Virus record (IMG/VR): IMGVR_UViG_3300002307_002134
Coordinates: 1-64,000 of that record
Origin: a virus
DNA length: 64,000 nucleotides
Direction: 5' to 3' (one strand)
The position numbers and the translations under genes are program-made. Of this stretch, positions 2,750-64,000 are shown piece after piece (position 1 is the first letter of the stretch; each line of letters starts with the position of its first letter). The notes under the pieces are model-generated. The model made no database searches. It was not told the origin of the DNA and saw only the letters and a program-made list of their open reading frames with translations.

Positions 2750-3787
2750 ATGAATAGTTTTAATGTAAGTTATGTTACCACATTGCCAAAAGAAGGCAAT
2801 TCACCTAGGGTAACGATTAGCGGTGATATACCGCAAAAATATTTAGTTAAGTTTTACGATAGAACTAAAGATTTAGTAAGTTCTGGATATTGTGAAACAA
2901 ATCAAACCATAATAGCTAAAGCAAAGCAATGGTTTACACAATGGGTTGTAATGATTGAAGATGAGGGTGGAAAAATGGTTCATATTGATTATTTTAATCC
3001 AACAAACAAAATAATTTCTATTAAGATAGACGCTTTTGCTTTGGGTGATAATATTGCTTGGATGCCGTATATTGAGGCATTTAGAGAGTTACATGAATGT
3101 ACTGTAATATGTTCAACATTCCATAATGATTTATTTGTTGAAAGTTATCCAAACATTATATTTGTAAAACCCAATACAGTAATTGAAAATATTTATGCTC
3201 AATACTACATTGGTGCTTGTGAAGAAGAAAACCCATATTATGCACCAGTAAAGTCACGTGAGGTAGCATTACAATGGGTTGCTGCTTATACTTTGGGATT
3301 ACCAAGAATTGAAATAAGACCAGATTTAACAACCAAATATAAAAATAGAATAATCAACGTAAGAAAGAAATACGTTACGTTATCTGAATTTGGAAGTGCT
3401 GAAAATAAATCTTGGAAAGCTGAGAATGGTTGGCAACAAATTGTTAATTTTTTGGTTGAAAAGGGATATGATGTTGTTGTAATATCAAAAGAACCCACTC
3501 AATTAAATAATGTGGTTAATATGACTGGAAATATTGATTTAAGTTATAGAATCATTGATATAATGAATGCTGAATTTCATTTAGGAATTAGCTCTGGATT
3601 AAGTTGGTTGGCATGGGCGTTGGGTAAACACGTAGTTATGATTAGTGATGTAACACCAACATGGCACGAATTTCAAAGTGATGTTACGAGATTTTGTGCT
3701 AATGATTTAACCAGTGTTAAATATGATGCTGAGGGGTATACAAAAATAGAAGATGTTATTGAAAAGCTCTCCCAAATGGTAGTTTGA
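2750..3787 (+). CDS. GT-B glycosyltransferase, autotransporter O-heptosyltransferase (TibC/AAH)-like / GT9-like
   Basis: ALGDNIAWMPYIE and GISSGLSWLAWALGKHVVMIS motifs. Confidence 0.7.
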   Translation: MNSFNVSYVTTLPKEGNSPRVTISGDIPQKYLVKFYDRTKDLVSSGYCETNQTIIAKAKQWFTQWVVMIEDEGGKMVHIDYFNPTNKIISIKIDAFALGDNIAWMPYIEAFRELHECTVICSTFHNDLFVESYPNIIFVKPNTVIENIYAQYYIGACEEENPYYAPVKSREVALQWVAAYTLGLPRIEIRPDLTTKYKNRIINVRKKYVTLSEFGSAENKSWKAENGWQQIVNFLVEKGYDVVVISKEPTQLNNVVNMTGNIDLSYRIIDIMNAEFHLGISSGLSWLAWALGKHVVMISDVTPTWHEFQSDVTRFCANDLTSVKYDAEGYTKIEDVIEKLSQMVV

Positions 3788-3826
3788 AGATATTTATAGT
3801 AAATAACATTTTTATCTTAAACTACA

Positions 3827-4171
3827 ATGATGGGAACAAATATTTTTTTATTTAACTCTGGTCATAGTAAAAAAACTAAGCTTGACAAAGCCTACAATGA
3901 GCACTTAAAAAACATTATACATACTATTAATGAGGAAGAAGAGAGTAGATGGGAGACATATAGCATAATAATAGAACAGTTGGTTAAACAAGGAAAAGAA
4001 AATTACTTAAACGAAATAAAGTATAGGTTGTCAGATGGTGAAAACCCTAACAAAGTAATTTTAAGTATAATAGACAGAGAATCTGATAATGTAGATGCTT
4101 TGACTTGGTTTTTTAAAAAAAGAATTGAGGAGTATTTGGAGGAAGATTATTTTAAAAGATTTTACTTTTAA
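3827..4171 (+). CDS. hypothetical protein, paralog of 1161..1484
   Basis: Shared motif WETY...EIKYRLSDGENPN; TATTTATA motif upstream. Confidence 0.7.
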   Translation: MMGTNIFLFNSGHSKKTKLDKAYNEHLKNIIHTINEEEESRWETYSIIIEQLVKQGKENYLNEIKYRLSDGENPNKVILSIIDRESDNVDALTWFFKKRIEEYLEEDYFKRFYF

Positions 4172-17419: not shown

Positions 17420-18437
17420 AAACGAAAAATCTGCGGCTTAACATAGTAATATGTTTCGAAAAATTCATCTAAACGGGGAATACCTAAAGAAGTCATGTTG
17501 TAGACAATCCCGTGCTAAATTTTATGATGATACCGTTTTAGGGTTACTTTTTAATTTATCTACATATTTATAATAAAAAACATTATGGGATACATTTATA
17601 AAATTATTAATTTAGAAACAAACAAATACTATTTAGGTAGTACTAAAGAAATAAAAAAAAAAGAACTTTAAAACATTTTAACGAACTTAGAAAAAATAAA
17701 CACCATTGTATTCATTTACAAAGAGCGTTTAATAAATACGGTGAAGATAATTTTAAATTAGAAATTATTTTAGAATGTGAAAACTATAAAGATAAAGAAC
17801 AAGAATTATTAGATTCAATATCTTTTTATGAATTGTACAATGTTTCAAAAAGTGCTAGTGGTGGTGATTTAATATCTAACCACCCAAATAAAGTTAATAT
17901 AATCAAAAAAGCGATTGAAAACCTTAGAAAGGCACCTAAACAAGAACCAAGATTTAAAAGCGATAACCCTAATTGGAAAGGTGGTAAAACTTTTTGTGAA
18001 TGTGGTTCTAGAATAGATAGTGTGACAAAAAAATGTATAAAATGTTTAGATAGAAGTGGTGAAAAGAACCCATTTTTTAATAAACAACATTCACAAGTAA
18101 CCAAAAAAATTTTAAGTGAGAAAAGAACTGGGAAATATAATGGTAACCAAGAAAAAATAGTAATTGTTAACGATGAAGAGTTTAAATCCTTATCAGAATG
18201 TGCTAGAGTCTTCAACGTTAAACCAGCAACAATTTTGAACCGAATTAAAAGTGTTAATTACCCAGATTATCAATATAAATAAATGCCTAACGACTATCCC
18301 GACAGGGAGTACACTCAAGTGAGTGGAAAAGATGAAAACCCAAATATTTGGGTTGTGATATAGTCTAATCTTTATGGAAACATAAAGAAGTTCATAAGAG
18401 AACTGCATAAGATTAACAACCTTATGTGAATATAGTG
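17420..18437 (+). mobile_element. group I self-splicing intron in thyA
   Basis: P1 exon CCGU pairs with IGS GCGG (U.G wobble); P10 ATCT pairs with 3' exon AGAT; P7 GACTAT/ATAGTC; terminal G at 18437; splicing restores QRSV-DTFLGLPFNIASY. Confidence 0.93.
17585..18282 (+). CDS. intron-encoded GIY-YIG homing endonuclease, frameshifted at A10 (17653-17662)
   Basis: MGYIYKIINLETNKYYLGST in frame 0; continues in the -1 frame HLQRAFNKYGEDNF...E...YN, followed by NUMOD-like NPFFNKQHS and HTH tail. Confidence 0.85.
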
Positions 18438-19316: not shown

Positions 19317-19356
19317 CATATTTATATTAAAATAAACAAACACAAAAAGATATAAT

Positions 19357-20322
19357 ATGAAAATTAATAACAGAATAACTCCAGTTGGTCTTAAGGGGCA
19401 AGAAATAAACAAACGTATGAAAGAATTGATGGGTGTCAAACCTATCAACGAAAACCAATCTAAAGTTGTTGTTGAATTGACCAAAATGGGTCCAGACGGA
19501 AATGCTTATGCTATTATAAGAGAAAACCACGAATGGTATATTAAAAAATCAACCAAAACCTCTAATCTAGTTGCTGAAGACTTCAAATATATTGGAGGTT
19601 TGATGAACAAGAAGGATGAGGCTTACAATTCATATGCCAAAGCTATCAAGCATTTGAACCTTAAATTCAAGAGTCTAGCTGAAGTTTATAACTTTGAAGG
19701 CGAAATCAACGTATTTGTAAACGACAATCTTTTAACTGAAAACACGCCAATGGCTGGTGGTTTCTCTGAAATGAAAGGTAATGGTTTTACAGGTGAAGGT
19801 AACTTGGAAGAAAACAAACCTATGTGGGAAGAAGAAGACAAAGATAAAAACAACCCATGGGCTATTTGCACATCTAGTGTTGGTAGAGAAGACAAAGACA
19901 AATACGAAGCTTGCGTTAAAGACGTTAAGAAAAAAATGGGTATGGACGAAAGCATGACTGAAGAAGGTTGGGCTGAAGAGTGTTGGATGCGTGAAAACAT
20001 GACCGATGAAGAAAGAGCTATTGATGAAATGATTGATGGTTATCAATCTACTGATGATAATGAAAATCAAACATCAAATGATGACGCATATGGTAAAGCT
20101 TTTAATTCAATGGAAGAAGAAGGAATTGATGAAGAAATGACCGACAAACAAAAAAAGTTTGCAGCATTGGCACCGCCATATGATAACATCACTTATGCTG
20201 ATAAAATTGCTGGTGCAAAAAAAGGCGAAACAAAAGAATCAAAATTTAGCATTTCAGAAGGACTTAAAAACATTGACCAATTAATTGAGAACTTTACCGA
20301 AGGGTTAAAAAAAAAAGTCTAA
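19357..20322 (+). CDS. acidic head-associated protein, short form (N-terminal part of a frameshift fusion)
   Basis: 321 aa ending LKKKV* on an A10 run (20307-20316). Confidence 0.8.
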   Translation: MKINNRITPVGLKGQEINKRMKELMGVKPINENQSKVVVELTKMGPDGNAYAIIRENHEWYIKKSTKTSNLVAEDFKYIGGLMNKKDEAYNSYAKAIKHLNLKFKSLAEVYNFEGEINVFVNDNLLTENTPMAGGFSEMKGNGFTGEGNLEENKPMWEEEDKDKNNPWAICTSSVGREDKDKYEACVKDVKKKMGMDESMTEEGWAEECWMRENMTDEERAIDEMIDGYQSTDDNENQTSNDDAYGKAFNSMEEEGIDEEMTDKQKKFAALAPPYDNITYADKIAGAKKGETKESKFSISEGLKNIDQLIENFTEGLKKKV

Positions 20323-22766
20323 CTGAAGACACAAAATATAAGTTAAAGCTTGCAGCCCCTAAACAAGAGCCATTAGTTTCAACTGAACCAGCACCTGTTG
20401 ATGATGCTCCACCAGCAGATGCTTCATTTGGTGATGAAAAACCATCAAGTTCAAGCAAAAAGCCTTTTGATGATGAACCATTTGATGCTGGTGTTGAGGC
20501 TGATGAAGAATCAGACCCAAAAAAATTCATAGAACAACTAACTGGAAAGTTAGGTCAATCCCTAAGAAAATATAACGAAGAACAAGGTCAACCAGATTTC
20601 GAACTAGAAAAGTTCGCAATCAATTCGTTATTGTCAGCAACTCACACTTCTGAAATGGATGCTGAAGACCAAAAAGATATTATAAGCAAAGTCAAAAAAG
20701 CTGGTCAAAAAGATAAAAATGTTGCTCCAGAGAGCGATGAAACACCTAGCGAAGAACCAGCACCAGAATCTGAACCATCTGATGAAGAAGGTTTGGATGA
20801 ATTGCATGTTTATGAAAACATGGATAATTTGTTTGTTGACCCTAAGAAAAACAATATGTTTCAAGATGGTTCAAATGACATACTGGATGAATATGGCTCT
20901 TTTACATTAAAAGAAGAATATATCAATGAAGGTTCTGGTAATATTTTGGAAGAAACTGAAGATTATGTAATATATGAAGTAATTGAAGAAGGTAAAAAGA
21001 AAAAGAAAAAAAAGAAAAAAGATGCATGCTATCGAAAGGTTAAAAGTAGATATAAAGTATGGCCATCTGCTTATGCTTCTGGTGCTCTAGTTAAATGTCG
21101 TAAGGTTGGAGCCGCTAATTGGGGTAAAAGTACGGATGAAGGTGAAGAACCTATAGAAGAAAAATGGTCAGAAAAATATAAAAATAGTATTGATTGTAAC
21201 AACCCAAAGGGTTTCAGCCAAAGAGCACATTGTCAAGGTAGAAAGAAACATGATGAATCAGTAGAAGAAGCAGCTAAAAAAACTGACTTTTCTAAAGAAA
21301 AAGAAAGCGGTCTTCATGGTTGGTTTTCTAGAAGAGGCGGTGGAGGTAGTAAAGGTTGGGTAGATTGTAACACATGTAGAGAAGGAAAATGTAAATCATG
21401 CGGAAGAAAAAATGGTGAAAGCAGAGCTAAATATCCTTCATGCAGAAAAACACCTAGTGCTTGCAAAACCAAAGGAAAGGGTGACTCATGGGGTAAAAAA
21501 TCCGCAAATGAATCTGAATATAAGGTTTATGAAAATATAGAAATTATGAATGAAACTAACAATTACATGTTTTGGTCTAACCTTAAAACTATTGTTCACG
21601 CAACTGGTGAACTAATGAAAATGGACTGTGGTAAAATTGATTCAATTTTATCAGATGGTCATGGTTGGGCAATAGACCACATTGCTACTTCAAATGATGA
21701 TATTGAAGAAGTTTATCATTTCTTGGAGGGTCAAATTAATTATGAAGGTGCTGATGCTGACCGCATGACTGAAGGAGAACATGAATCGAACAATTACATG
21801 TTCTGGCAAAATCTAAAAACCATGCATCATGGTGCCAAAGAAATGTTAGAAATGGACCCATCTAGAGTTGATTCAATTTTATCAGATGGTCATGGTTGGG
21901 CACTAGACCACGTAGCTACTTCAGCTGATGACGTTGAAGAAGTATATCATTTCTTGGAAACAGAAGTTGATTCTTATGATGGTGATACACAAGGTGGTTA
22001 TAGTGATGAATTCGGTAGTGTTCAAAACACAACCATGAATGAATCTGAATATAAGGGCAGAACCGTAAAATTGGGCAAACCAATGAAAGGTGATGTTAAG
22101 AAATTCAAAGTATTTGTTAAAAACAAATCTGGTAAAGTGGTAAAAGTTAACTTTGGTGACCCTAATATGGAAATCAAACGAGACAACCCAGAAAGAAGAA
22201 AATCATTTAGAGCAAGACACAAATGTTCTCAAGCACATGATAGAACAACACCTAAATATTGGTCATGCAGAATGTGGTCAAGAAAACCAGTATCTAAAAT
22301 TATTGAAAAAGACTTGTCAGAGTCAAATAAAAATAGTATCTTTGACAAAAACTATATAAAGATGATAATTCATGAATCATTAAATACACATACAGAACCA
22401 GTTGTAAAACCAGCACCAACTAAACCAGCTGAACAACCTGTAAAACAACCAAGTAGAAAAGATAAGCCATTTTTACCAATGCCAGAAGTTAATCCAGACC
22501 CAAAAGCTGTAAACGAAAGCAAATCAAAATACGAGATTTACCATAAGACTCTTAGTCAAACGATTCAAGAAATTGAGCGTTATGTTATGTCACATGGTTA
22601 TGAACCAGTTGAATTTGATATCAATGATATCCAACACGTTCCTTATGGTGAAACTGCAAGGATTCAAAAACCATTGGTTAAAAACGGTAAACAAAAAGGA
22701 AATCTTAACGCTCAAATCTATCGTATGGATGGTGGAACGTATGAATTAAACATGTACGTAGGATAA
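20316..22766 (+). CDS. -1 frame extension of 19357 (includes ORF 20631..22766); modular basic/Cys-rich and acidic protein
   Basis: The frame is open from the A10 run (SLTEDTKYKLKLAAPKQEP...) for ~105 codons before the annotated TTG, with no in-frame ATG in that stretch. Confidence 0.8.
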   Translation, partial: SLTEDTKYKLKLAAPKQEPLVSTEPAPVDDAPPADASFGDEKPSSSSKKPFDDEPFDAGVEADEESDPKKFIEQLTGKLGQSLRKYNEEQGQPDFELEKFAINSLLSATHTSEMDAEDQKDIISKVKKAGQKDKNVAPESDETPSEEPAPESEPSDEEGLDELHVYENMDNLFVDPKKNNMFQDGSNDILDEYGSFTLKEEYINEGSGNILEETEDYVIYEVIEEGKKKKKKKKKDACYRKVKSRYKVWPSAYASGALVKCRKVGAANWGKSTDEGEEPIEEKWSEKYKNSIDCNNPKGFSQRAHCQGRKKHDESVEEAAKKTDFSKEKESGLHGWFSRRGGGGSKGWVDCNTCREGKCKSCGRKNGESRAKYPSCRKTPSACKTKGKGDSWGKKSANESEYKVYENIEIMNETNNYMFWSNLKTIVHATGELMKMDCGKIDSILSDGHGWAIDHIATSNDDIEEVYHFLEGQINYEGADADRMTEGEHESNNYMFWQNLKTMHHGAKEMLEMDPSRVDSILSDGHGWALDHVATSADDVEEVYHFLETEVDSYDGDTQGGYSDEFGSVQNTTMNESEYKGRTVKLGKPMKGDVKKFKVFVKNKSGKVVKVNFGDPNMEIKRDNPERRKSFRARHKCSQAHDRTTPKYWSCRMWSRKPVSKIIEKDLSESNKNSIFDKNYIKMIIHESLNTHTEPVVKPAPTKPAEQPVKQPSRKDKPFLPMPEVNPDPKAVNESKSKYEIYHKTLSQTIQEIERYVMSHGYEPVEFDINDIQHVPYGETARIQKPLVKNGKQKGNLNAQIYRMDGGTYELNMYVG
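21559..21960 (+). repeat. internal duplication of a ~57-aa His-rich module
   Basis: NNYMFW.NLKT..H...E...MD....DSILSDGHGWA.DH.ATS.DD.EEVYHFLE twice. Confidence 0.9.
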
Positions 22767-25407: not shown

Positions 25408-25506
25408 AATAAAACTTATATAAACATAATGAGGCCTCAAATGAGGCCTTATTTATTTGAAATAGGGCACTTTATCAGAGACTAGTATATTTATATTAAA
25501 AAGAAT

Positions 25507-30160: not shown

Positions 30161-33100
30161 ATGGCAGAAAAACAAAAATTAACAATTTTTCAAAGACTAG
30201 GACAAATTATTGGCCCAGACGGACCTAAAATAAAACAAAACCAACCACAACCACAAAGATACAATATTGGAAATGATGTTCTGTTAAAAACAGATAATAA
30301 AGTTGATTTTGAAAGGGCCAAGTTACAAGCACAACAAAACAAGTATCTAGGCCAAATGTGGAAAAAAGTTGAGAGTGGTTTGTTTCAACAATCAATCAAC
30401 TATGAAACCACACGTATTGGTTCTTATTCTGATTTTGAAGCTATGGAATTTTATCCAACTATAGCCGCTTCTTTGGATATTATGATGGAAGAATCAACTA
30501 CTCTTAATGATAAAGGTAGAATCATGAATGTTTATTCAGATAGCAAACGTGTAAAAGGCATCCTTGAGGATTTATTTTTCAATAGATTAGATTTACACGT
30601 ATCATTACCTATGTGGGTTAGAAATACACCTATTAGAGAAAATAGTATTATACCGTTATTAGATGGTACGGAAGTAACTATTAAAGAACTTTCTAGTAGA
30701 GTTAAATCTGGTGAAGAAATATGGTCTTATGCTATACAAGATGGTACCAAAGCAATTGTACCAAGCAAAATAATATGGTGTGACCTTACTAGAAAGGATT
30801 CTGAATTGTATAGGGTTACACTTGACAATGGTACTCATATTGATACAACACCAGACCACGAATACATGCTTAGAGATGGTTCATATAGAAGGGCTGATGA
30901 ATTAACAGAAGGTACTAGTCTTATGCCTTTTTATACAATGACTAGCACGGAAAAACAAGATAAAATAACTGGTTATGAAAAAATATACAATCCAACGTCA
31001 AACAGATACAGATATACACATAGAATTGTCGCCAATGAGTGTGTTAGAGACTATAGGCATGAAAACACAATAAATGACAAGTTTTTAAGACATCATAAAA
31101 ATTTTATCAAAAAAGATAATAGACCAACTAATTTAGAAAGAATGACTTTTGGTGACCACGCTATTTTACATGAAAGAAATTCCAAACATTTAGAAAACTA
31201 TAGAAATCTTCCAGAAGTAAAAACCAAAAGAATGGTTGGTATTGATAAGTATCTTAGGTCTGACGCTAGAAAAGAAAGGCTTTCAAAAGAAATGTCTGGT
31301 ATATACCCTAAATATTTTAATGAATATAATAATAGCCAGTTACACGAAGAACATAATAGTGTTAGGTCAGAAAAAATGACAATTACTTGGGGCAAAGAAA
31401 ACTATAAACAAAAAACCAAAGAATTAATGACAATAACCATTAATGACAAAGCTTTTGATTATATTACTAACTTAATAAAAAATTTTGATGGATACGTTGG
31501 TATTAATTTATTATCTGACCTACTTAAAAAAGATGTTGAATTTATAAAATTATTTAGTGAAGGATATACCCTCAGAAAAGACCCAGCAAAAGCAATTAAT
31601 CCGACTACGTTAAATAAATTAATAACTAGAAAAACTCAACAAAACTATTTTGATTTTGTTATTTCAATTAAACCTAGTTTAGTAATAGATAAAAAATATA
31701 TAAAAGCTAAAGCAATATTCTTAGGTAAAACAAACAAAAAAATTCTTAACCATAAAGTTGTTTCAGTTATTAAATTAACTGAAACATCAGATGTTTATTG
31801 TCTTGAAGCTGTTGGCCCAAATAATGAACAGGATAGACATAATTTTCCTGTGTGTAGTATTGACATAAGCGGTTCATTTTCAAGAGATGGTGTGTTTTTA
31901 TCAAATTGTAAGTACGGTGATAATTTTATATATTTAAACATTGATGAAAAACATGGTATATTGGGTGCCAAACAAATGCCTAACTATGAAATGGAACGTA
32001 GAGAAAGCGGTTTATTTGATATGATTACAGGTCGTGAGACTGTAAATGCTGAAGTGGCCACCGCTGATAAAACTAAATTTTTCTGGAGAGGTCGTGATGT
32101 TGAATTTAATTCATGGCAAATTGCTCACTTCCGTTTATTGGGTGATGACAGACGTTTACCTTATGGTACTTCAGTTTTGGAAAAAATTAGACGTATTTGG
32201 AAACAGCTTATTCTTTCTGAAGACTCAATGTTGGTTTATCGTGTAACTCGTGCACCAGAAAGACGTGTATATAAGATTTACGTTGGTAATATTGATGATG
32301 GCGATGTGGAAGCATATGTAAACACAATTGCTGATAGATTCAAACGTATGCCTATTATTGACCCACAAACTGGTCAAATGGATTTGCGTTACAATCAATT
32401 AAGTAATGACCAAGATTATTTTATACCTGTTCGTACTGAAGATGCTCCTAACCCGATTGATACCCTACCAGGTGCTACAAACCTAGACCAAATTGCCGAC
32501 ATTGAATATTTAAGAAGTAATTTATTTACAGCTCTTAGAGTCCCTAAACCATTTTTAGGGTTTGATGAAACTGCTGGTGAAGGTAAAAATCTTGCGTTGC
32601 AAGATATTCGTTTTTCTAGAACTATTAATAGAATTCAACAAGCCATATTACAAGAGCTTAACAAAATTGCTATAATACATTTATATTTGTTAGGTTTTGA
32701 AGAAGATTTTGATAATTTTACACTTACACTTAACAATCCATCAACTCAAGCTGAAATGCTTAAGATTGAGCACTTGCAAACAAAAGTTACGCTTTATAAA
32801 GATGCAGTATCTGATGCTGGTAATGGATTTGGTGCTATGTCAATGACTCGTGGTAAAAGAGATATATTAGGTATGTCTGATGATGAAATAAAACAAGATT
32901 TACTTGAGCAACGTATGGAGAAAGCTGCTGCTGCTGAATTGGCAAATTCTGCCAACGTAATCAAACATACAGGTATGTTTGATGTTGTTGATAGAGTTTA
33001 TGGTGATTTCAAATTAGCCCTTAAAGGTGGTGGTGGAGGTGGAACTGAAAGTGAACAAAGTGGTAAAGAAAACAGTGGTGGCGGAGGCGGTGGTCTTGGC

Positions 33101-33466
33101 GGAGGCTTTGGAGGCGGTGGAGTTTCTGGCGAAGATTTAGATTTTGGAACTGAAGAAGCTGGAACTGAAGAAGCTGGAACTGAAGAAGCTGGAACTGAAG
33201 AAGTTGGAACAGAACAACCAACAGAAGTAACTGAATCAGTAAAAAAAGTACAAAAGATACTTAAAGAACAAAAAGTTATTTTGGCTAAAAAATTAGATGA
33301 AAGAACCAAAAAGTATCAAGGTAAATTTTTAGATAGACTAATCGAATCAGTTGAAGATACACCAAAACAAAAAGAAGAAAAAGTAAAGATTTATGATAAA
33401 ACCGTCAAAATTAATAAAGAAATTGGTGACATGATTGATGGTATTGATAAAATGTTGGATGAGTAA
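30161..33466 (+). CDS. portal protein (T4 gp20-like) with an intein
   Basis: YRVTRAPERRVYKIYVGN, DYFIPVR, IDTLPGA, DIEYL, ALRVP, DIRFSRTI; Gly/Glu-rich tail. Confidence 0.95.
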   Translation: MAEKQKLTIFQRLGQIIGPDGPKIKQNQPQPQRYNIGNDVLLKTDNKVDFERAKLQAQQNKYLGQMWKKVESGLFQQSINYETTRIGSYSDFEAMEFYPTIAASLDIMMEESTTLNDKGRIMNVYSDSKRVKGILEDLFFNRLDLHVSLPMWVRNTPIRENSIIPLLDGTEVTIKELSSRVKSGEEIWSYAIQDGTKAIVPSKIIWCDLTRKDSELYRVTLDNGTHIDTTPDHEYMLRDGSYRRADELTEGTSLMPFYTMTSTEKQDKITGYEKIYNPTSNRYRYTHRIVANECVRDYRHENTINDKFLRHHKNFIKKDNRPTNLERMTFGDHAILHERNSKHLENYRNLPEVKTKRMVGIDKYLRSDARKERLSKEMSGIYPKYFNEYNNSQLHEEHNSVRSEKMTITWGKENYKQKTKELMTITINDKAFDYITNLIKNFDGYVGINLLSDLLKKDVEFIKLFSEGYTLRKDPAKAINPTTLNKLITRKTQQNYFDFVISIKPSLVIDKKYIKAKAIFLGKTNKKILNHKVVSVIKLTETSDVYCLEAVGPNNEQDRHNFPVCSIDISGSFSRDGVFLSNCKYGDNFIYLNIDEKHGILGAKQMPNYEMERRESGLFDMITGRETVNAEVATADKTKFFWRGRDVEFNSWQIAHFRLLGDDRRLPYGTSVLEKIRRIWKQLILSEDSMLVYRVTRAPERRVYKIYVGNIDDGDVEAYVNTIADRFKRMPIIDPQTGQMDLRYNQLSNDQDYFIPVRTEDAPNPIDTLPGATNLDQIADIEYLRSNLFTALRVPKPFLGFDETAGEGKNLALQDIRFSRTINRIQQAILQELNKIAIIHLYLLGFEEDFDNFTLTLNNPSTQAEMLKIEHLQTKVTLYKDAVSDAGNGFGAMSMTRGKRDILGMSDDEIKQDLLEQRMEKAAAAELANSANVIKHTGMFDVVDRVYGDFKLALKGGGGGGTESEQSGKENSGGGGGGLGGGFGGGGVSGEDLDFGTEEAGTEEAGTEEAGTEEVGTEQPTEVTESVKKVQKILKEQKVILAKKLDERTKKYQGKFLDRLIESVEDTPKQKEEKVKIYDKTVKINKEIGDMIDGIDKMLDE
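30629..31906 (+). mobile_element. portal intein (426 aa), Pro1 class-3-like, with HNH endonuclease
   Basis: RNT|PIRENSIIPLLDG...TTPDHEY...RHHKNFIKKDNRPTNL...DVYCLE...GVFLSN|CKYGD. Confidence 0.85.
33146..33205 (+). repeat. 15-bp tandem repeat x4 (GTEEA) in the portal tail
   Basis: unit ggaactgaagaagct. Confidence 0.9.
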
Positions 33467-35418: not shown

Positions 35419-35457
35419 ATTTATATCACATATTTATATCTATAAGCTAAAAAAATT

Positions 35458-36180
35458 ATGGATATAAATTACGATAAAATTAAAACGCTTAGACGTGGAG
35501 AAACTGGGTTTGGTTATTTAATTGAAAACGATGCTGGCTATATAAGCCCAGATGAACCAAGGAACCAACCATTTATAAGCGAAATAAAGAAACTAGAAAC
35601 TGGTAAGTTGGTAATTTCTGAACCACTTGTAGTTTATGTTATTCTTCAAAAATACGGTATCTTAAATCGTAATGGACGTGTATATCCAGAATCCATACTT
35701 AAAAAACAAAACGAATTATATCAAAAAACAATCAGAGAACGTAGTGCTGTTGGTGAATTAGACCATCCAGAATCTAGCGTTATTTCTGGTGATAGAATAT
35801 CTCATAATATTATTGAAACATGGTGGGAAGGTCATACTCTTATGGGTAAGATGGAAATTATTATGACACCAGGTTTTATAAACTATGGTATTGTTTCAAC
35901 CAAGGGTGATTTAGTAGCAAATTTATTAAGGAATAGAATAAGAATAGGTGTTTCTTCTAGAGGGGTTGGTTCTTTAAAAGATGGAAAAAACGGTGAACAA
36001 ATAGTACAAGATGATTTTGAAATAATTTGTTGGGATGTAGTTACGGCACCATCTACACCAGACGCTTGGATATTTAATAATATCGAGCAAGCTAAACCTT
36101 ATGTTGAGGGTGTTGAAATTAAAAAAACTATTATTAAAGAGAATTTAAACGAAAAACTTGATAAATTTTTAGCTGAATAA
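35458..36180 (+). CDS. prohead core protease (T4 gp21-like)
   Basis: NRNGRVYP, GELDHP, GVSSRGVGS, WDVVTAPS. Confidence 0.93.
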   Translation: MDINYDKIKTLRRGETGFGYLIENDAGYISPDEPRNQPFISEIKKLETGKLVISEPLVVYVILQKYGILNRNGRVYPESILKKQNELYQKTIRERSAVGELDHPESSVISGDRISHNIIETWWEGHTLMGKMEIIMTPGFINYGIVSTKGDLVANLLRNRIRIGVSSRGVGSLKDGKNGEQIVQDDFEIICWDVVTAPSTPDAWIFNNIEQAKPYVEGVEIKKTIIKENLNEKLDKFLAE

Positions 36181-36297: not shown

Positions 36298-37518
36298 ATG
36301 GCAGACAAAAAATCAATACTTGAAGAAGCTCTTTTGGATATCAAAAATATTCAAAGTGCTCTTAACGCCAACACTAAAGAAATACTTCGTAGCGTAGCTA
36401 GAGAAGAAATTGATGGTGTCGTAAAAGAATCTCTAACTAAAGAGGTTTATGAAGAAGAAGAAGTTGATTCTGTAAATGAAGAATCTCACGAAGAACATGA
36501 GAAATCTGAAACTCCAGCGGAGGAAAAGAAAGAACATGGTAAAGGTGGTTCGGAAAAGAAAGAAAAAGTAGAAAAAATGACTGAAAACATGGAAGAAGAA
36601 GGCATGGAAGAAGAAGGTATGACTTATGAAGGCATGGAAGAAGAAGGCATGGAAGAATTAGACATGACTTCTGCATCAGATGATGATGTTATCGCGATTT
36701 ACAAGAAATTAAGTGGTGATGATGAAATAGAAATTGTAGGTGATGAAATTCACTTCAATGTTTCTGAACCAGGCGAATACGTTATTAAAACTTCTGACCT
36801 TGAAGGTAACCTTGAAGGTGATGAAGAAGGTGACGTAGATTACGAAATCGAAATGGATGATGAAGAAGGTGACGAGCCAACTGATTTGGAACCAGTAGAT
36901 GACGAAGAAGAAGAAGAAGAAGAAGAAGAAGAAGAAGAAGAAGAAGAAGAAGGAGTTGAAGAACCAATTGAAGAAAAAATTAGCATTGGTACTGGTATGA
37001 GCGTGGGAACACATCGTGGCCAAGGACCAAAATCAATTGGTGCCCCAGAAAATCCTAAATCTGAAGCTATTACTGAATCTGCTAAGAAACTTGTTTCTGA
37101 AACAACAAAAAAATATAATCTTTTATTGACTGAAACTAGCAAATTAAAAGCTGAAAACTTAGAGTTCAGAAAAGCTTTGAAAGAGTTTAGAAATAAGTTG
37201 GTAGAGACTGTAGTGTTCAATAGCAATCTTACTTATGTAACTAAATTGTTTACTGAACACGCAACTACTAAAGGTGAAAAACAAAATATCATCAAAAGAT
37301 TTGATGAAGAAGTTACAAACCTTAAGGAGTCTAAAAAATTGTACAAAACTATTGTTAACGAATTGGAATCTAGAAAACCAATTGCTGAATCAGTAGGGAA
37401 CAAAATAATTAAAGAAGCTACTACCAGTTCTTCAAAACAATTAAATGAAAGCACTGCGTATGTAGACCCTTCAACTAAGAGAATCTTAGATTTGATTAAC
37501 AGAGTTGAAAAAAAATAA
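36298..37518 (+). CDS. prohead scaffold protein (gp22-like)
   Basis: Very acidic coiled-coil protein between protease and MCP. Confidence 0.8.
   Translation: MADKKSILEEALLDIKNIQSALNANTKEILRSVAREEIDGVVKESLTKEVYEEEEVDSVNEESHEEHEKSETPAEEKKEHGKGGSEKKEKVEKMTENMEEEGMEEEGMTYEGMEEEGMEELDMTSASDDDVIAIYKKLSGDDEIEIVGDEIHFNVSEPGEYVIKTSDLEGNLEGDEEGDVDYEIEMDDEEGDEPTDLEPVDDEEEEEEEEEEEEEEEEGVEEPIEEKISIGTGMSVGTHRGQGPKSIGAPENPKSEAITESAKKLVSETTKKYNLLLTETSKLKAENLEFRKALKEFRNKLVETVVFNSNLTYVTKLFTEHATTKGEKQNIIKRFDEEVTNLKESKKLYKTIVNELESRKPIAESVGNKIIKEATTSSSKQLNESTAYVDPSTKRILDLINRVEKK
36904..36951 (+). repeat. (GAA)16 poly-Glu microsatellite
   Basis: read directly from the sequence. Confidence 0.95.
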
Positions 37519-37551: not shown

Positions 37552-39441
37552 ATGTCACATTTATTAACATCTGGACAAGTGGGTAATATCGGATTGAACC
37601 ACATGAAGGCTATCCGTAAAGAAACCCAAGCAAAATGGAATAGCTTAGGCTTCCTTGATGGTCTTGAAGGCCACGTAAGAGAAAACGTTGCTCAATTGTA
37701 TGAGAACCAAGCTTCTTCATTACTTACTGAGTCTACAAATGCAACATCATCTGGTTCTTTTGAAACAGTTGTATTCCCAATTGTAAGACGTGTATTCTCT
37801 AAATTATTAGCTAACGATGTTGTGTCTGTACAAGCTATGACCATGCCAATCGGTAAATTGTTCTACTTTGTACCACAAACTTCTAGCCGTATTGACGGTA
37901 ATGGTGTTGCTGGTAATGACTATGCTAACGAAAATTACAATAGCACAAATAGTCCATATTCAGCTCACACAGGTCTTAACGGTGAACACAATGGTAAACC
38001 TAGTGCTGTTGCATTGCCAGTTGCTGTAAGTGGTGTTAATGGCACTATTCTTACTCAATTTTCGGCTAAAAACTTGTACGATATATTCTACAATGATGGT
38101 TTATTTGATAACTCAAAAGGTACTCTTACAATTGTAGGTATGACAGGTTCTTCTAACTACCTTGGTTATACATTTAACGGTAGTGGTACATTAACACAAG
38201 GTGCTGCTGGTGATACTGTTCCTACAGCTACTGATGGCAGTGTAAGAGGTGTTATTATCGGTGTAACTGGATTTAGAGGTGGTGCTGGTTCTAGCGGACG
38301 TGAAGTATTAACTGGTCCAGACGGTAACAACATGGATACTGAATCATTCTTGGCTTCATTACACGTTGTAAACGGTGCTAGTGCAATCCTTGATAGTGAT
38401 GGTAATACTATTATCGCTGCTAACAAAGAAATTCCTTTCCGTATCGTAACTCAACAATATGGTAAAGGTATCGTTCAAAACTCAACCAACAACTTGGTTA
38501 CTGATAAAGGTCTTATGTTTATTGAGCTTGACCTTCGTCACCCAGTTGGTACTTCTAATGGTACTGCTGTAGTTGGTACATCAACTTATGATGGTTATGT
38601 AGGTGCTGCATCTACAGGTTCAACTGGTTATTTCAGTGGTTACACTGGCTTAACAATTGCTTGGGCTGAATACTCTTCATTGGAACTTGAAACTGAATTG
38701 GGTGAAGTATCTTTCAACCTTGCTGAAGTTGTAGTTTCTGTAGAAGAAAGAAAATTACGTGCAACATGGTCACCAGAATTGGCTCAAGACGTTAGTGCAT
38801 TCCACAACATTGATGCTGAAGCTGAATTGACAGCTATGTTGTCAGAACAAGTTGCTGCGGAAATTGACCGTGAAATCCTTAGAGATTTGCGTAAAGCTGC
38901 TGCATGGCAATTACGTTGGGACTACAACGGTTGGAGAAAAGCTTCTTCTGCTGCTAGCCCATACACTCAAAAAGACTGGAACCAAACTCTTATCACTAGA
39001 GTTAACCAATTGAATGCTCAAATCCACAAATCAACTCTTCGTGGTGGTGCTAACTTCATCGTGGTTTCTTCTGAAATCAGTGCAATCTTCGATGATTTGG
39101 AATATTTCCACGTATCAGATGCTAACCCAGAGCAAGACCAATACAACATGGGTATTGAAAGAATCGGTACATTAAGCGGTAGATATCAAGTATATCGTGA
39201 CCCTTATGCTCCAGCTTACTCAGTAATCGTTGGTCACAAAGGTAAATCATTATTGGATACAGGTTACATTTACGCACCATACGTGCCATTGCAATTGACT
39301 CCAACAATGTACAATCCTTTCAACTTTGCTCCAGTTAAAGGTATCATGACTCGTTACGCTAAGAAGCTCGTAAATAATAGGTTCTATGGACATGTTAGAG
39401 TAGATGGTGTGCCAACGTTCAACGTAGCAGAATTGAGATAA
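37552..39441 (+). CDS. major capsid protein (T4 gp23-like)
   Basis: VSVQAM..P.G..F, RKLRATWSPELAQD, DAEAEL...EIDREI, GYIYAPYVPL, GIMTRYA. Confidence 0.96.
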   Translation: MSHLLTSGQVGNIGLNHMKAIRKETQAKWNSLGFLDGLEGHVRENVAQLYENQASSLLTESTNATSSGSFETVVFPIVRRVFSKLLANDVVSVQAMTMPIGKLFYFVPQTSSRIDGNGVAGNDYANENYNSTNSPYSAHTGLNGEHNGKPSAVALPVAVSGVNGTILTQFSAKNLYDIFYNDGLFDNSKGTLTIVGMTGSSNYLGYTFNGSGTLTQGAAGDTVPTATDGSVRGVIIGVTGFRGGAGSSGREVLTGPDGNNMDTESFLASLHVVNGASAILDSDGNTIIAANKEIPFRIVTQQYGKGIVQNSTNNLVTDKGLMFIELDLRHPVGTSNGTAVVGTSTYDGYVGAASTGSTGYFSGYTGLTIAWAEYSSLELETELGEVSFNLAEVVVSVEERKLRATWSPELAQDVSAFHNIDAEAELTAMLSEQVAAEIDREILRDLRKAAAWQLRWDYNGWRKASSAASPYTQKDWNQTLITRVNQLNAQIHKSTLRGGANFIVVSSEISAIFDDLEYFHVSDANPEQDQYNMGIERIGTLSGRYQVYRDPYAPAYSVIVGHKGKSLLDTGYIYAPYVPLQLTPTMYNPFNFAPVKGIMTRYAKKLVNNRFYGHVRVDGVPTFNVAELR

Positions 39442-47151: not shown

Positions 47152-47202
47152 AGCTATTTGTTTTACTATAAATACCTTGAAAACTGGTTTTATTGCAATT
47201 GT

Positions 47203-47928
47203 CTATAAACCATGATTTTTTAATAAATCATAAAGTTCTTTGTATCTTTTCATGGCTAATCTAATATCTTTAGTGGATAAATTGGTATAATTTCTCATGG
47301 TTTCCAAAACAGAATTTTTATTGTATTTGGCACCACCATTCATTGATTCAAAAGCAGTTTCCCAATTTTCAAGTATTTCTATAAGGGCATAACCTACTTT
47401 TTTTTCATTATCACTTAGTTTCTTTTTTGGTATTTTATTTTGGTCATTCAACTCTTCTTTTATACCGTCCGTAATTTTTTTAATAAAATCATCCATTGAA
47501 AAAACATCATCGTCCATAACATAAGACATATCACTTCTTTCTTCTAAATCATCGGATATATCTTCATAAGAAGCTGTTTGCTTCGTGTACTTTTCATCTT
47601 TAATAAGTAATCCTAAAATATAGTTTTTACTTATTGTGCCAAAGTAAGAATAAGCTTTTTTACCTCTCCCCCTTTCGAACTTATGTACTTTTGTCATTAA
47701 GAAAGAAACTGTGTCACTATGAAGTTCATCAAAAGTTTCACCTTTTCTATATAATTTGTACCTTCTAATTATCGATTCAATCATCTTATCAAGCGGTGCT
47801 TTTAACCACTCGTTAAAAATTTGATTCCTTTCTGTTTCGTCTGTTGATTCTAAAAATTTAATAACGGCTTCTTCTTCATTTGGACCAAAATACATCTCAT
47901 TTGTTCTTTTGCGTCCCCTTTTAACCAT
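47203..47928 (-). CDS. phage sigma factor (T4 gp55-like late sigma)
   Basis: Sigma region-2-like segment DELHSDTVSFLMTKVHKFERGRGKKAYSYFGTISKNY. Confidence 0.7.
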   Translation of the reverse strand: MVKRGRKRTNEMYFGPNEEEAVIKFLESTDETERNQIFNEWLKAPLDKMIESIIRRYKLYRKGETFDELHSDTVSFLMTKVHKFERGRGKKAYSYFGTISKNYILGLLIKDEKYTKQTASYEDISDDLEERSDMSYVMDDDVFSMDDFIKKITDGIKEELNDQNKIPKKKLSDNEKKVGYALIEILENWETAFESMNGGAKYNKNSVLETMRNYTNLSTKDIRLAMKRYKELYDLLKNHGL

Positions 47929-48729
47929 TTATACTAATTGTTCACTATACGTTATTTTTCTGTCTTTAGCAAAATAATATTCTTTTTTAGCCTGTGCCAA
48001 CCACCATCTAGCTTCACTAGGGTTAATTGTTTCTTTATATGTTGCAAACAAAGAACCTACCCTTTGATTTACGTGTTTATACCCAAACCTAGGGATTACC
48101 ATGGTTTTAACTGATTTGAACGTCATACGCAACAAAAATTCATAAATAAATGTTAATTTTATGCTTGATTTAAAACCACCGAATGCTTCATAAACTGATT
48201 TTTTCATTACAATTCCGTCAATGTTAAAGTTTTGATAGGTTAGTAATGCATTATTATCCAAAATGCCTAATTCATCTGAAAAGCTTTGAGCCCAAACAGC
48301 TTCATTGGTTAAACCGATAAACTGGCCAGATGCATCTACGTCTACAACGATAGGCATAAATATTTCAACATCAGTGTGAGCTGCCCTATATTCAACAACA
48401 TTTTTAAACCAGATGTTGGCATATTCATCATCAAATTCTAAAATACTAAACCAATCTGATTTACTAGTTTTAACACCAAAATCAATTTGAGTTGCAAAAT
48501 CTGTTTCACCATCATTCTCAGCAATGGTTATGTTTGAAGTATAATCACCAAAATCCAATGATTTAATATAAGTAGCTACTTCACTATCTTTAGGTACTAC
48601 AATAACCAATTCGTCTGGTCTTACAGTTTGTGATTTTACACTTTGAACAGCATTGTCAAAAAGTGTTTTGGTTTCATCATTTAACTCATGAACTGGTAAT
48701 ATAACAGAAATATTATTTTTTTCTTTCAT
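47929..48729 (-). CDS. GT2-family glycosyltransferase
   Basis: ISVILPVH...QTVRPDELVIV...LEFDDE. Confidence 0.75.
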   Translation of the reverse strand: MKEKNNISVILPVHELNDETKTLFDNAVQSVKSQTVRPDELVIVVPKDSEVATYIKSLDFGDYTSNITIAENDGETDFATQIDFGVKTSKSDWFSILEFDDEYANIWFKNVVEYRAAHTDVEIFMPIVVDVDASGQFIGLTNEAVWAQSFSDELGILDNNALLTYQNFNIDGIVMKKSVYEAFGGFKSSIKLTFIYEFLLRMTFKSVKTMVIPRFGYKHVNQRVGSLFATYKETINPSEARWWLAQAKKEYYFAKDRKITYSEQLV

Positions 48730-48744
48730 TTTATTTTAATTTAA

Positions 48745-49893
48745 TTAAACGTTAGTTTTTTCTTTGATTTGTTCTTCTAGACTAGAAATAATATTTTTAA
48801 ATTCTCCAATTCTTCCTGTTAACAAACCACCATATACGTTTGATAGGGCTTCTTTTTGTTTTTCACTTGTGTATTGGCCTTTGCTTTCTTTGATACTGTT
48901 AATCATTTCATTTGGTACTGAATCTTCTAACCAAACCTTGATGTAAGTTGCAATTAATTCTGGAATATTTATTGTAGTGTTTGTCCAAACACCATTATTT
49001 TTAATAGAATAGTTACCTTCATCATCTTTTGTTTCCATCCATTCTGGGATTAGATTTGGCATTTTACCAATTACTGGCGTTTCACATTCCATAGCTTCCA
49101 ATGGAAACGTACCGAATCCAGATTGGTCATCGACCCATACTGCCAAACAAGATTTTGCCAATTCAGTAGCAAATTGTTGTCTAGGTAATCCTCTCAATTC
49201 TTTAAAAGTAATCCATTTATATACAGGAAATTGCAAATAAAAAGATTTTGCAATTTTAGCGGCATCTCCTTGATTTCTAGTTAAAATGCTAACAAGTGGA
49301 ATCTTAGGTTTATCGCTATTTTTGAAATAACTAGGTATTGATACAGGTACAACATATGTTCTGATTGATGGGAACAGATTGTTTACATACTGGGCTTGTT
49401 TAAAGCTTGTGGTAATTACATCATGAAACCCATAATCTGTATTCCATCTTTTACCTATAGGAAGTAGTTCTAATAGGTAGTCATAACTTTGTGAGAACAC
49501 AATTTTTTTGCATGGAAAAGTTTTTATTTGGTCCATAATATTTGAAAATATTTCTGGAATAACAATAAAATCAGCTGGACTGATATTAAGTTGTTGACCT
49601 TCGATTGATACGTGAGGCAAAGCTGCGTATTCTTCTCCTAACCAATCAGCAATGCCTTGTCCATTGTTGTCACCTCTTAATTTATAATCATTTTTTTCAT
49701 GAAGGATAACCGCATCATAACCTAATTCAATTAATAGTTTTACATGTTCGTAAATGTTAGCAATACCAGCTGTTGGATTTCCTTTGGTGTCCAAAGTAAA
49801 AAAGTATATTTTGAAATCTTTGTTTTCTAATTTTTCAATAACCCCTTTAGCTTGGCTAATTTGGTCTTCAAATTGTTTTAAATTTTCTGCCAT
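48745..49893 (-). CDS. GT-B (GT4-like) glycosyltransferase
   Basis: SGFGTFPLEAMECETPVIG. Confidence 0.7.
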   Translation of the reverse strand: MAENLKQFEDQISQAKGVIEKLENKDFKIYFFTLDTKGNPTAGIANIYEHVKLLIELGYDAVILHEKNDYKLRGDNNGQGIADWLGEEYAALPHVSIEGQQLNISPADFIVIPEIFSNIMDQIKTFPCKKIVFSQSYDYLLELLPIGKRWNTDYGFHDVITTSFKQAQYVNNLFPSIRTYVVPVSIPSYFKNSDKPKIPLVSILTRNQGDAAKIAKSFYLQFPVYKWITFKELRGLPRQQFATELAKSCLAVWVDDQSGFGTFPLEAMECETPVIGKMPNLIPEWMETKDDEGNYSIKNNGVWTNTTINIPELIATYIKVWLEDSVPNEMINSIKESKGQYTSEKQKEALSNVYGGLLTGRIGEFKNIISSLEEQIKEKTNV

Positions 49894-49913
49894 ATTTTTG
49901 TTTTTTTTTTAGT

Positions 49914-50273
49914 TTATAATTCTTTTTCTTTTAGTATACCATAATTGTATAAGGTATTAAAAGCTAATTTGTAAGATAAAGGCATTTTTTCTAATGCTCT
50001 TTCGGCACCCAATGAAGTATCTGATTCATCTTCGTAATCTAGAACTATTTCAAGCATTGTTCTTATTACTTCAAATTTTGCAGTATCGATTTCTTTACCT
50101 CTAGGTGCTGATGTTTCATATTCTTCAATAGCAAGAATATTACCATCACCATCTTTCATTATTTTTTTTTCATTTGATGTTACTAAATCTGTTGGTTTAA
50201 GACCATTTGGGGCTAAAACTTTGTCAAAAGCAGATAAATCAATATAATAAAATGTTTCACCGAATTCTATCAT
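49914..50273 (-). CDS. hypothetical protein
   Basis: 119-aa ORF. Confidence 0.65.
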   Translation of the reverse strand: MIEFGETFYYIDLSAFDKVLAPNGLKPTDLVTSNEKKIMKDGDGNILAIEEYETSAPRGKEIDTAKFEVIRTMLEIVLDYEDESDTSLGAERALEKMPLSYKLAFNTLYNYGILKEKEL

Positions 50274-50277
50274 GTTC

Positions 50278-50883
50278 TTAAATTTCTTCGTAAGTAGTTG
50301 TTATTGTTGGTTTTAATATTTTATTTCGTAGTTCTTCATCTTTAAAGAAATCTAGAATTGAATCAATTTCATAATCAGCTTTAGCGTCTGTATTGTAATT
50401 TGTTTTTACTTTAACACTTATTTTTCCAGCTGGTTTTGCTTCTAAAGCTTTTGGGTTTGCCGTAATTAAAACATCGACATTATTCCATTTTTGTTCGTAT
50501 TTTTTTACAAATCTAATATTGGTTGGTCTGGCACCTGTTTTAGATAGAAAGAAAAATGTTGACGGGATAGCTTTGTTTACTTCTCGGCTAACCAGTTCTA
50601 TTTCATGTTCTCCTTCATATTCAATGTCTATTAAAAATTCATTGAATCGGTTGATGATGCCATCATGTAATTGGTCAGCATGACCAAAAATTTCTAGAGG
50701 TGCTTCCAAATAAAGGAAGTTGTTAAATTTGTCAACACTATCAAATTTAAAAAACTCCATCAAATCAAAGTTTGTTACATCTTTAACAGTAATATTTGTT
50801 TCAGCAATGTACTTGTTATAAGTGTAAGCAAATTGGCCGATAAAGTCTCTTAGTACCTCGTTTAGACTAATTGCTATTTTCAT
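50278..50883 (-). CDS. 5'(3')-deoxyribonucleotidase-like HAD-fold protein, catalytically degenerate
   Basis: MKIAISLNEVLRD where active enzymes have IAIDxDxVLxD; TNYN near the C-terminus. Confidence 0.55.
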   Translation of the reverse strand: MKIAISLNEVLRDFIGQFAYTYNKYIAETNITVKDVTNFDLMEFFKFDSVDKFNNFLYLEAPLEIFGHADQLHDGIINRFNEFLIDIEYEGEHEIELVSREVNKAIPSTFFFLSKTGARPTNIRFVKKYEQKWNNVDVLITANPKALEAKPAGKISVKVKTNYNTDAKADYEIDSILDFFKDEELRNKILKPTITTTYEEI

Positions 50884-50932
50884 GTAACCAATTTAATGGT
50901 TAACCCTAAATAAGTAAAGTAAAAGGAAATTA

Positions 50933-51751: not shown

Positions 51752-51802
51752 GTATTTGTTTTCTAATAAATATCTTAAACAGTAAAGATGTTCAAATTTT
51801 TA

Positions 51803-52603: not shown

Positions 52604-52606
52604 ATT

Positions 52607-53425: not shown

Positions 53426-53429
53426 ATAT

Positions 53430-55837: not shown

Positions 55838-55840
55838 ATA

Positions 55841-56491: not shown

Positions 56492-56593
56492 ATTATTTAT
56501 TACAATTATAAATACGGTAAACACATTTACCCCAATGACATTTTTTTTCATATATTTGGGCAGCTTCCCAACATTCTTTTGTTATTTCTTGTT

Positions 56594-58067: not shown

Positions 58068-58069
58068 AA

Positions 58070-58885: not shown

Positions 58886-58889
58886 TAAA

Positions 58890-63921: not shown

Positions 63922-64000
63922 TTTTTTTATTTTTCCGCTAATTATCCAATCACCAGTTTCTAAAAAAACTGGTAAAATGTCATTTATATCACTTTCTACA

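Follow-up and report, generated by a model that had tools for sequence, protein, structure and literature searches.

The stretch of DNA analysed here, referred to as the window, comprises the first 64 kb (64,000 nucleotides, nt) of a 171-kb virus record in IMG/VR (IMGVR_UViG_3300002307_002134; CheckV completeness 48%, GC content about 30%). On its plus strand, where all the features of the slip-site gene described below are located, two open reading frames (ORFs) meet at a run of ten adenines and are very probably one gene with a programmed recoding site. The first of them, ORF1 (19357..20322), is the zero frame and encodes a short product of 321 amino acids (aa), whose last codons, re-read from the sequence, are TTA AAA AAA AAA GTC TAA, giving a C-terminus of KKKV and then the stop codon. 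The A10 run, the putative slippage site, occupies positions 20307..20316, and the zero-frame stop TAA (20320..20322) is placed two codons past it. A TGA in the -1 frame at 20286..20288 confines the overlap of both frames to 34 nt around the run; from 20289 the -1 frame is open to 22766, ending in a TAA at 22764-22766. An earlier note on this DNA had described this open frame and the lack of an early start codon in it, and both descriptions hold, with the first ATG, GTG or TTG being a TTG at 20631 and the first ATG lying at 20655. The long product reaches 1136 aa when one A is added to the run, as had been proposed; the -1 frame continuation (20316..22766) accounts for residues 321-1136 and the stop codon.

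At a GC content of 30%, a single A10 is not improbable, and five runs of at least ten A or T are found in the 171 kb of the record. Chance nevertheless does not account for the site, since only one of these five, the run at 20307-20316, is placed at a two-frame junction that is conserved in relatives, and it recurs there in 128 of 133 related loci. Furthermore, AAA accounts for 86% of the lysine codons in the whole genome, yet KKK tripeptides encoded by AAA throughout are found in 4 out of 35 cases, against the 22 expected, and long A runs are otherwise avoided in the coding sequence of this genome.

The conservation of the run and of the frame break, a check that the earlier note had called for, was examined with three queries of a viral contig collection, which provided 133 loci containing both parts, the N-terminal domain and the conserved post-junction segment, whose frames were then compared. 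The A run and the frame break are kept, and 128 of the 133 loci need a -1 shift. With regard to the other five, one needs a +1 shift (L043, with A9) and four are continuous; a single continuous ORF in relatives, the outcome that the earlier note had set against its own reading, was therefore found at 4 of the 133 loci only, two of them with an in-frame A10. After removal of duplicates, there are 84 distinct -1 junction contexts, with A10 in 66, A9 in 12, A11 in 5 and no run in one (L140). The flanks vary widely, and the identity of the N-terminal domain to the nearest query is as low as 38%. All three codon phases are represented among the -1 contexts. In phase 2 (58 cases), the run begins at the wobble position of TTA, GTA, GGA, TCA, CCA or ATA, codons for six amino acids, and the nucleotide A is kept while the encoded amino acid changes. 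In the phase-0 variants, the first As are themselves part of a -1-frame TAA, and therefore the shift must fall inside the run. A zero-frame stop is found at most 9 codons after the run in all of the 65 contexts checked, and in the first 17 sequences the +1 frame runs into a stop within 6-8 codons. At the protein level, ORF1 has 1134 cluster representatives at E<=1e-3 in a library of 1.84 billion representative proteins, and among the best 150 of these relatives 107 end in KKK plus at most 6 residues.

Both halves also align as one protein. BLASTP of the conceptually fused proteins gives a single alignment through the junction, as for residues 1-508 of the window protein against 1-511 of the locus L002. 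A conserved amphipathic helix (..LSI..AL..MD.IID.LTEG.., 20251..20304) lies just before the run and a KYKLKL motif (20334..20351) directly after it in the -1 frame; the conserved flanks are an LTEG..KKK helix before the run and (S/K)L.E.TKYKLK after it, the latter in the -1 frame. In 17 of the 17 sequences compared, KYKLK comes after the run in this frame and has no start codon before it, and the motif is also found in the relatives with a continuous ORF. In distant relatives, both halves are encoded in one continuous ORF. Some continuous relatives carry KKK at the junction (P0091, P0102, P0105, P0111, P0112 and P0108) and others are devoid of any KKK (P0142, P0135, P0141, P0149 and L130/L131). 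The P0108 type is present on several independent contigs, the other KKK-bearing continuous proteins being singletons, and a metagenome scan with P0105 found no relative.

In the loci L101 (run at 3520-3529) and L102 (3431-3440), the A10 is in frame and standard decoding leads to the long form, with one extra A leading to a stop after 3 codons in L101 and after 1 codon in L102. Since these two loci retain the A10 in frame, the run itself is kept in either arrangement, which argues that a mixture of short and long product may be what selection keeps.

Certain observations weigh against a programmed recoding site. The locus L140 (2810-2830) has no A run, and its junction reads TTG GGT TTT TAA (GGGTTTTT then TAA) with the -1 frame open, which may represent a ribosomal slip site (G_GGT_TTT) or else a miscalled homopolymer; the sample identifier presumably points to an early metagenome, where such a miscall is plausible. 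A few singleton continuous proteins in the library may be DNA-level variants or miscalls. Additionally, the shift, its rate and its mechanism are deduced from sequence alone.

In the proposed mechanism, standard decoding of the A10 template would produce the 321-aa protein, composed of the N-terminal domain, the NPWAICT module, the helix and the KKKV end, and a fraction of the expression events would shift to the -1 frame inside the A run. Most likely, the shift would stem from slippage of a host-type RNA polymerase on the T10 template, yielding an A11 mRNA. The shifted events would result in the 1136-aa protein, with the same N-terminal part ahead of the conserved helical core and of a variable chain of small folded modules on acidic disordered linkers. 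The N-terminal domain would thereby act as an anchor and the modules as its cargo, with the run setting the cargo dose.

Late genes of T4-like phages are transcribed by the host polymerase, and because of this the rules of bacterial slippage should apply. The evidence leans towards polymerase slippage as the main cause of the shift, to which the ribosome may also contribute, because the run is at least 9 nt long, its modal length is that of the hybrid within the polymerase, no consistent RNA structure is found and the in-frame A10 variants mirror the bacterial gene dnaX. The RNA-DNA hybrid of bacterial RNA polymerase is 9-10 bp long, and runs of 9 A/T slip efficiently in vivo (PMC5009743); the modal run length of 10 equals the upper end of this range. 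As regards RNA structure, the mean z score is -1.07 in the 60 nt downstream of the run (below -2 in 18% of the contexts) and -0.73 upstream, with +0.7 for the window.

The same two products could be made through -1 ribosomal frameshifting on A_AAA_AAA(G), or through sliding of the ribosome on poly-A, an explanation that is rather unlikely but has evidence of its own. The heptamer A_AAA_AAA, an efficient ribosomal -1 site, is present in the zero frame in all three phases, and this, together with a strong downstream hairpin in L001 (z -6.1), speaks against polymerase slippage. Moreover, the phase-1 variants read CAA AAA AAA AAG, which is the classical dnaX-type A_AAA_AAG, and in L140 a G_GGT_TTT followed by a stop is placed at the same junction. 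One study reports that ribosomes can slide on iterated AAA codons (PMC4363877). Nevertheless, a ribosomal heptamer would need only 7 nt and no run shorter than 9 is found among the 83 A-run contexts (9-11 nt), with the extra As retained even at the wobble positions of varying codons. A consistent stimulatory structure downstream was not found either, and the in-frame A10 of L101 and L102 fits slippage giving mixed transcripts.

A third explanation is a contingency locus at the DNA level, where genomes would be either A10 (off) or A11 (on) and the long protein would come from the on-genomes only. A10 runs are mutable during replication, some relatives and library proteins are continuous through KKK, and the A9 of L043 is in a +1 state; switching predicts comparable on and off frequencies, however, and the same out-of-frame state is found in 128 of the 133 loci, which come from many samples. 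Since this state is nearly universal, phase variation is very unlikely as the main mechanism. Artefact or decay, be it assembly under-calling, a pseudogene or two genes with an unusual second start, draws on a further A10 break at 17653, not conserved in the locus L016, and can be dismissed as extremely improbable, as the same break occurs in 84 distinct contexts and three run lengths, both halves are conserved as protein down to about 38% identity, some 113 codons contain no start codon while the sequence right after the run is conserved, and homopolymer under-calling could not produce one and the same offset with three run lengths in dozens of assemblies made independently.

The A10 just mentioned (17653-17662, in the gene at 17585-18282) splits the ORF of a GIY-YIG endonuclease, whose zero frame ends in ..GSTKEIKKKEL before a stop and whose remainder is encoded in the -1 frame. 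In L016, the homologue (about 3310-4010) is a single continuous ORF without an A run, and the break may reflect decay or slippage-limited expression. Given its lack of conservation in L016, this break was not used as support for slippage, and a phage-wide habit of slippage was likewise rejected.

With regard to the architecture of the long product, the beads-on-a-string build that had been predicted is seen in two AlphaFold models, one of ORF1 and one of an 819-aa part, in which at least nine folded modules are separated by long, disordered linkers that are acidic or Pro-rich. The motifs listed in that prediction (NPWAICT, DACYRK..VKCRK, KWSEKY..AHC, LHGWF..CNTC.. and EYKGRT..YWSC) and the duplicated His-rich module are all present. 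The family signature is an N-terminal alpha/beta domain (residues 14-125; 19396..19731), modelled with a predicted local distance difference test (pLDDT) score above 94 at residues 41-120 and with eight columns that are invariant across 120 sequences. Our guess is that this domain is an anchor or targeting part; the absence of a recognisable fold relative counts against such a role. Foldseek against the PDB gave nothing at E<=0.001 for the ORF1 model (best E>=0.1), the best Z obtained by VIA-align of the same model with 48,161 chains was 5.4, a value within noise, and BFVD returned two uncharacterised relatives from the family only. The ESM Atlas gave only hypothetical viral clusters, and the 819-aa model, including its C-terminal domain, found no match by Foldseek in the PDB. 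Likewise, no Pfam family reaches the cut-off with either half, and no enzymatic or MuF-type domain was detected by this search; in PHROGs, only families of unknown function were matched by two of the modules and none by ORF1.

The N-terminal domain is followed by the helical module NPWAICT...EACV (residues 166-232; 19852..20052; pLDDT 80-95), which is present in many relatives and absent in some. In P0005, P0006, P0032 and others, the variable middle of ORF1 carries EF-hand-like loops (..LDVNKNGKLD..DF.KLR..), sometimes duplicated, which are absent from the window copy. Beyond the junction lies core-2 (20457..20705; pLDDT about 80), a conserved three-helix segment (PFD..PFDAGVEA..DPKKFI.QL.GK.GQSLR..ELEKF.INS..SATHT) that is found in every family member, including the distant continuous ones. 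It is followed by module A (DACYRKVKSRYKVWPSAYASGALVKCRK; 21021..21125), which is helical with two Cys, is modelled with a pLDDT of about 90 and matches phrog_727, phrog_38880 and phrog_3477, and by module B (KWSEKYKNSIDCNNPKGFSQRAHC; 21162..21251), also helical with two Cys. Module C (KTDFSKEKE..LHGWF..GWVDCNTC..CKSCGR..YPSCR.TP..C; 21279..21503) is Cys-rich, basic and poorly modelled (pLDDT 40-55), and from its CxxC spacing it could bind metal. The His-rich helical module (NNYMFW..SDGHGWA.DH.ATS.DD.EEVYHFLE) is present as copy 1 (21558..21728; pLDDT about 88) and copy 2 (21789..21959), the latter also seen in the AlphaFold model. A beta-rich basic module (EYKGRTVKLGKP..FRARHKC..YWSC; 22047..22301; pLDDT about 88) matches phrog_7595 at 7.5e-12 and has a weak likeness to Pfam DUF5754, at 16.2 bits (E 0.011), under the 27.4-bit gathering threshold. 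Most family members, and likewise the separate genes that carry modules, have a Pro-rich basic motif (..PSRKDKPFLPMPEVNPDPKA; 22395..22511) as their C-terminus. The window protein has a further alpha+beta domain at its C-terminal end (22521..22763; pLDDT about 90), which is common only to the closest relative, L001.

Across the family, the core is made up of the N-terminal domain, the KYKLK motif, core-2 and the C-terminal Pro-rich basic motif (..KPFLP...NP.PKA), and the beads between these elements differ by relative. In L002 (8585-10637), modules A-C are found in a separate downstream gene of 528 aa with a small N-terminal domain of its own, which ends in the same C-terminal motif (..KPFLP..P.PKA), an arrangement seen in several relatives; a Cys-rich gene of 158 aa lies between the slip-site gene and the 528-aa gene. 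In L013 (6684-9482), module A is interrupted by an insert of about 260 aa, which starts with a Cys after ..WPSAYA and ends in ..TGN before SGAVVRCRK. The insert looks intein-like; Pfam gave no Hint-domain match and an intein was not confirmed.

Modules A-C have at least about 8000 homologues and are extremely common in aquatic phages. Such modules are also found on their own in small free genes, such as the one for a 156-aa protein of the Flavobacterium phage immuto and gp26 of HTVC111P, and the beta-rich module corresponds to a free 93-aa gene in this Pelagibacter phage. Elsewhere, module homologues are found in fusions with GNAT, Zn_protease-like and DUF5661 domains and, below the Pfam cut-off, with ART-PolyVal. 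Conversely, tblastn of ORF1 against 50,697 phage records gave no match, for which reason no cultured representative of the family is known. The literature search found nothing on the protein family, on the WPSAYA motif or on relevant transcriptional slippage in a jumbo phage.

The phage itself is an uncultured, giant and distant member of the T4 superfamily, and related contigs reach 345-362 kb. The order of genes around the slip-site gene is kept in all relatives, with a split thymidylate synthase, two small ORFs, the slip-site gene, three unknown genes and the terminase gene. Inteins are present in the large subunit of the terminase, which shows about 34% identity to cyanomyophage gp17 over its N-terminal part. 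Further downstream are the portal gene (30161-33466), a gp21-type prohead core protease on the plus strand (35458..36180; Pfam Peptidase_S77, 5.8e-25), the gene for a very acidic scaffold-like protein with a run of about 18 Glu (36298-37518), which is located between the protease and capsid genes, and that for a Gp23-type capsid protein of 629 aa (37552-39441; Gp23 profile, 1.7e-72). The Gp23 profile covers residues 339-614 only, leaving a large N-terminal stretch outside the match. On the minus strand, positions 47200-64000 of the window hold a back-to-back array of more than 15 ORFs of about 200-270 aa each, possibly a paralogous family.

A promoter-like motif, ATATTTATA, is found on the plus strand at 19318..19326, about 30 nt upstream of the ATG of the slip-site gene. 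The window contains 13 matches to it, against 4.9 expected, and none of 100 shuffles reached 13. Its plus-strand positions include 414, 3790, 17564, 19035, 19318, 25487 and 35430, mostly 20-40 nt before start codons, and three genes have it 20-40 nt upstream, namely the slip-site gene, the terminase gene (motif at 25487) and the protease gene (motif at 35430). Because ATATTTATA is common to all three, a common late regulation of these genes is suggested, with the motif as a candidate late promoter.

The slip-site gene is probably late and its products are probably virion-associated. For the Synechococcus phage S-SCSM1, particles purified on CsCl were analysed by mass spectrometry to identify the virion proteins (PMC9602691). 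Its ORF29 (517 aa), annotated as a virion protein and located two genes upstream of the terminase gene, resembles the long product in its beads-like build and in having module A and related Cys-pair modules. However, ORF29 has neither the family N-terminal domain nor core-2 nor the A-run break, and is a relative of the modules only; the three genes upstream of the terminase gene in the window show no homology to the S-SCSM1 neighbours. The proposed virion association draws on gene context and on a module-sharing protein instead of an orthologue, which weighs against it.

It had been proposed in the earlier note that the long form is a head-internal polyprotein, and we retain this as a tentative reading on the doubtful side of even, in which a gp21-type protease would cut the linkers after hydrophobic-x-Glu and the small basic Cys peptides would stay with the capsid DNA. 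In T4, gp21 cuts core proteins into fragments and removes propeptides (PMC5694885). The prohead protease that the proposal called for is indeed encoded nearby in the same genome, as the Peptidase_S77 protein described above. The long protein contains 24 [IL]-x-E motifs, against 11.6 expected (z 4.1), with a mean z of 0.44 (sd 1.1) for the ORFs of the genome; its enrichment is the second-highest among the genome ORFs tested when the pieces are tested singly and the top one as a fusion. The density of the motif is 0.032 per residue in the linkers and 0.014 in the folded parts, a 2.3x difference with similar Glu counts.

The claim that the linkers end in such motifs stands in its broad form, as [ILMV]-x-E ends at most 10 residues upstream of 7 of the 9 modules (p about 0.005 against random placement). 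It does not stand in the strict form, since [IL]-x-E precedes only 1 of the 9 modules in the window, the motifs before modules being mostly M/V-x-E. Relatives retain ..ILDE|SDRCT.., ..Q(L/I)DE|KWSEKY.. and ..IDE|AAKKTDF.. at the aligned borders of modules A, B and C, respectively. Similar motifs are found in other head proteins of the phage: in the capsid protein, LLTE|S stands at the position expected for a T4 gp23-like propeptide site, some 17 residues ahead of the conserved FPIVRR block, and QLNE|S is found near the end of the scaffold-like protein (..QLNE|STAYV..). Additionally, an (I/L/V)-N-E motif at residues 30-32 (19444..19452), in the loop that connects the N-terminal helix with the beta domain, has I, L or V in 111 and E in 112 of 120 sequences, and could be a propeptide cleavage site like those of T4 internal proteins. 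Nonetheless, the module borders were chosen after the sequence had been seen, and Glu-rich linkers beside amphipathic helices may yield such motifs without any cleavage. The modules are also free genes in podophages without a T4-type protease, such as HTVC111P, and their homologues elsewhere are fused to enzyme domains. Cleavage into capsid peptides is, all in all, a plausible idea, given the motif enrichment in the linkers and the detection of a module-sharing cyanophage protein in virions.

More doubtful still is the full scheme in which the A run would dose a capsid cargo, the N-terminal domain, with its (I/L/V)-N-E site, targeting both forms to the prohead core, the protease cutting the long form at its hydrophobic-x-Glu linkers to free small basic Cys-pair or metal-binding peptides that would stay with the DNA and be injected, and the acidic linkers leaving the head. 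Under this scheme, the modules would be swapped freely between phages and would be intein-bearing in one lineage.

The T4 core and internal proteins that gp21 processes (gp22, gp67, gp68, IPI-III and Alt) offer a comparison, as the phage has a T4-like head module with a gp21-type protease and its long protein has acidic linkers, hydrophobic-x-Glu enrichment and a conserved I-N-E near the N-terminus. They differ in that no similarity of sequence or fold links them to the phage protein, whose motifs before the modules are mostly M/V-x-E. A further comparison can be made with the polyvalent proteins described by Iyer et al. in 2017, which combine many unrelated domains per polypeptide next to virion genes (PMC5512222). 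The likeness lies in the several unrelated modules, in a content that varies between relatives and in the conserved block upstream of the terminase gene. In contrast to polyvalent proteins, which carry effector enzymes or hallmark domains (MuF, MPTase, ART, methylase-helicase and others), no such domain was detected by Pfam in the long product, and its modules are of only 30-90 aa; a frameshift is not mentioned in PMC5512222.

With regard to the recoding itself, the closest counterpart is dnaX of Thermus thermophilus (tau/gamma), where a run of about 9-10 A/T leads to mixed mRNA and to two products with a common N-terminus, the alternative frames being closed by nearby stops (PMC5009743). The in-frame layout of L101 and L102 is exactly that of dnaX, whereas in the window and in 128 of the 133 relatives slippage would be needed for the long product and standard decoding gives the short one. 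Furthermore, dnaX is a replication gene and the slip-site gene a putative phage late gene of unassigned function. Slippage at an A/T run also restores or extends an interrupted gene, with two length variants, in tssM of Citrobacter rodentium and in spa13 and mxiE of Shigella (PMC4256274, PMC5009743). These are single bacterial loci, in contrast to the phage run, which has been retained throughout a large virus family and links a conserved domain with variable modules.

Among tailed phages, recoding yields a C-terminally extended structural protein in T7 (10A/10B). The gpG and gpGT proteins of lambda are likewise a short and a long product made from one start in the morphogenesis region of a tailed phage (PMC5009743). 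Both cases differ from the present one in relying on a ribosomal -1 shift on 7-nt sites, the run of the phage gene being of 9-11 nt. A tail-assembly chaperone of the G/GT kind was rejected as a candidate, as gpG/GT is placed between the tail tube and tape-measure genes and the slip-site gene is not, lying instead upstream of the terminase gene, and as ORF1 has no chaperone match in PHROGs or Pfam.

The type of recoding, slippage at an A/T run with two products from one N-terminus, is already known, and what is new is the gene family and the place where it occurs. It is also new that out-of-frame, in-frame and run-less states are found in one family and that the extension is a variable chain of small modules. 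Gene callers split the gene in every relative, and as a result the family is mis-annotated as two genes and the long product is missing from protein databases. The family is large and widespread: it counts over 1100 protein clusters, and the phages that carry it reach about 360 kb. Should the cargo reading be true, small modules that are unstudied and very abundant in marine and freshwater phages, with at least about 8000 homologues, would be packaged and injected. With its slippage run preserved throughout a deep virus clade, the slip site offers a clean case from nature, and the family is a good system in which to study how recoding evolves and sets protein ratios.

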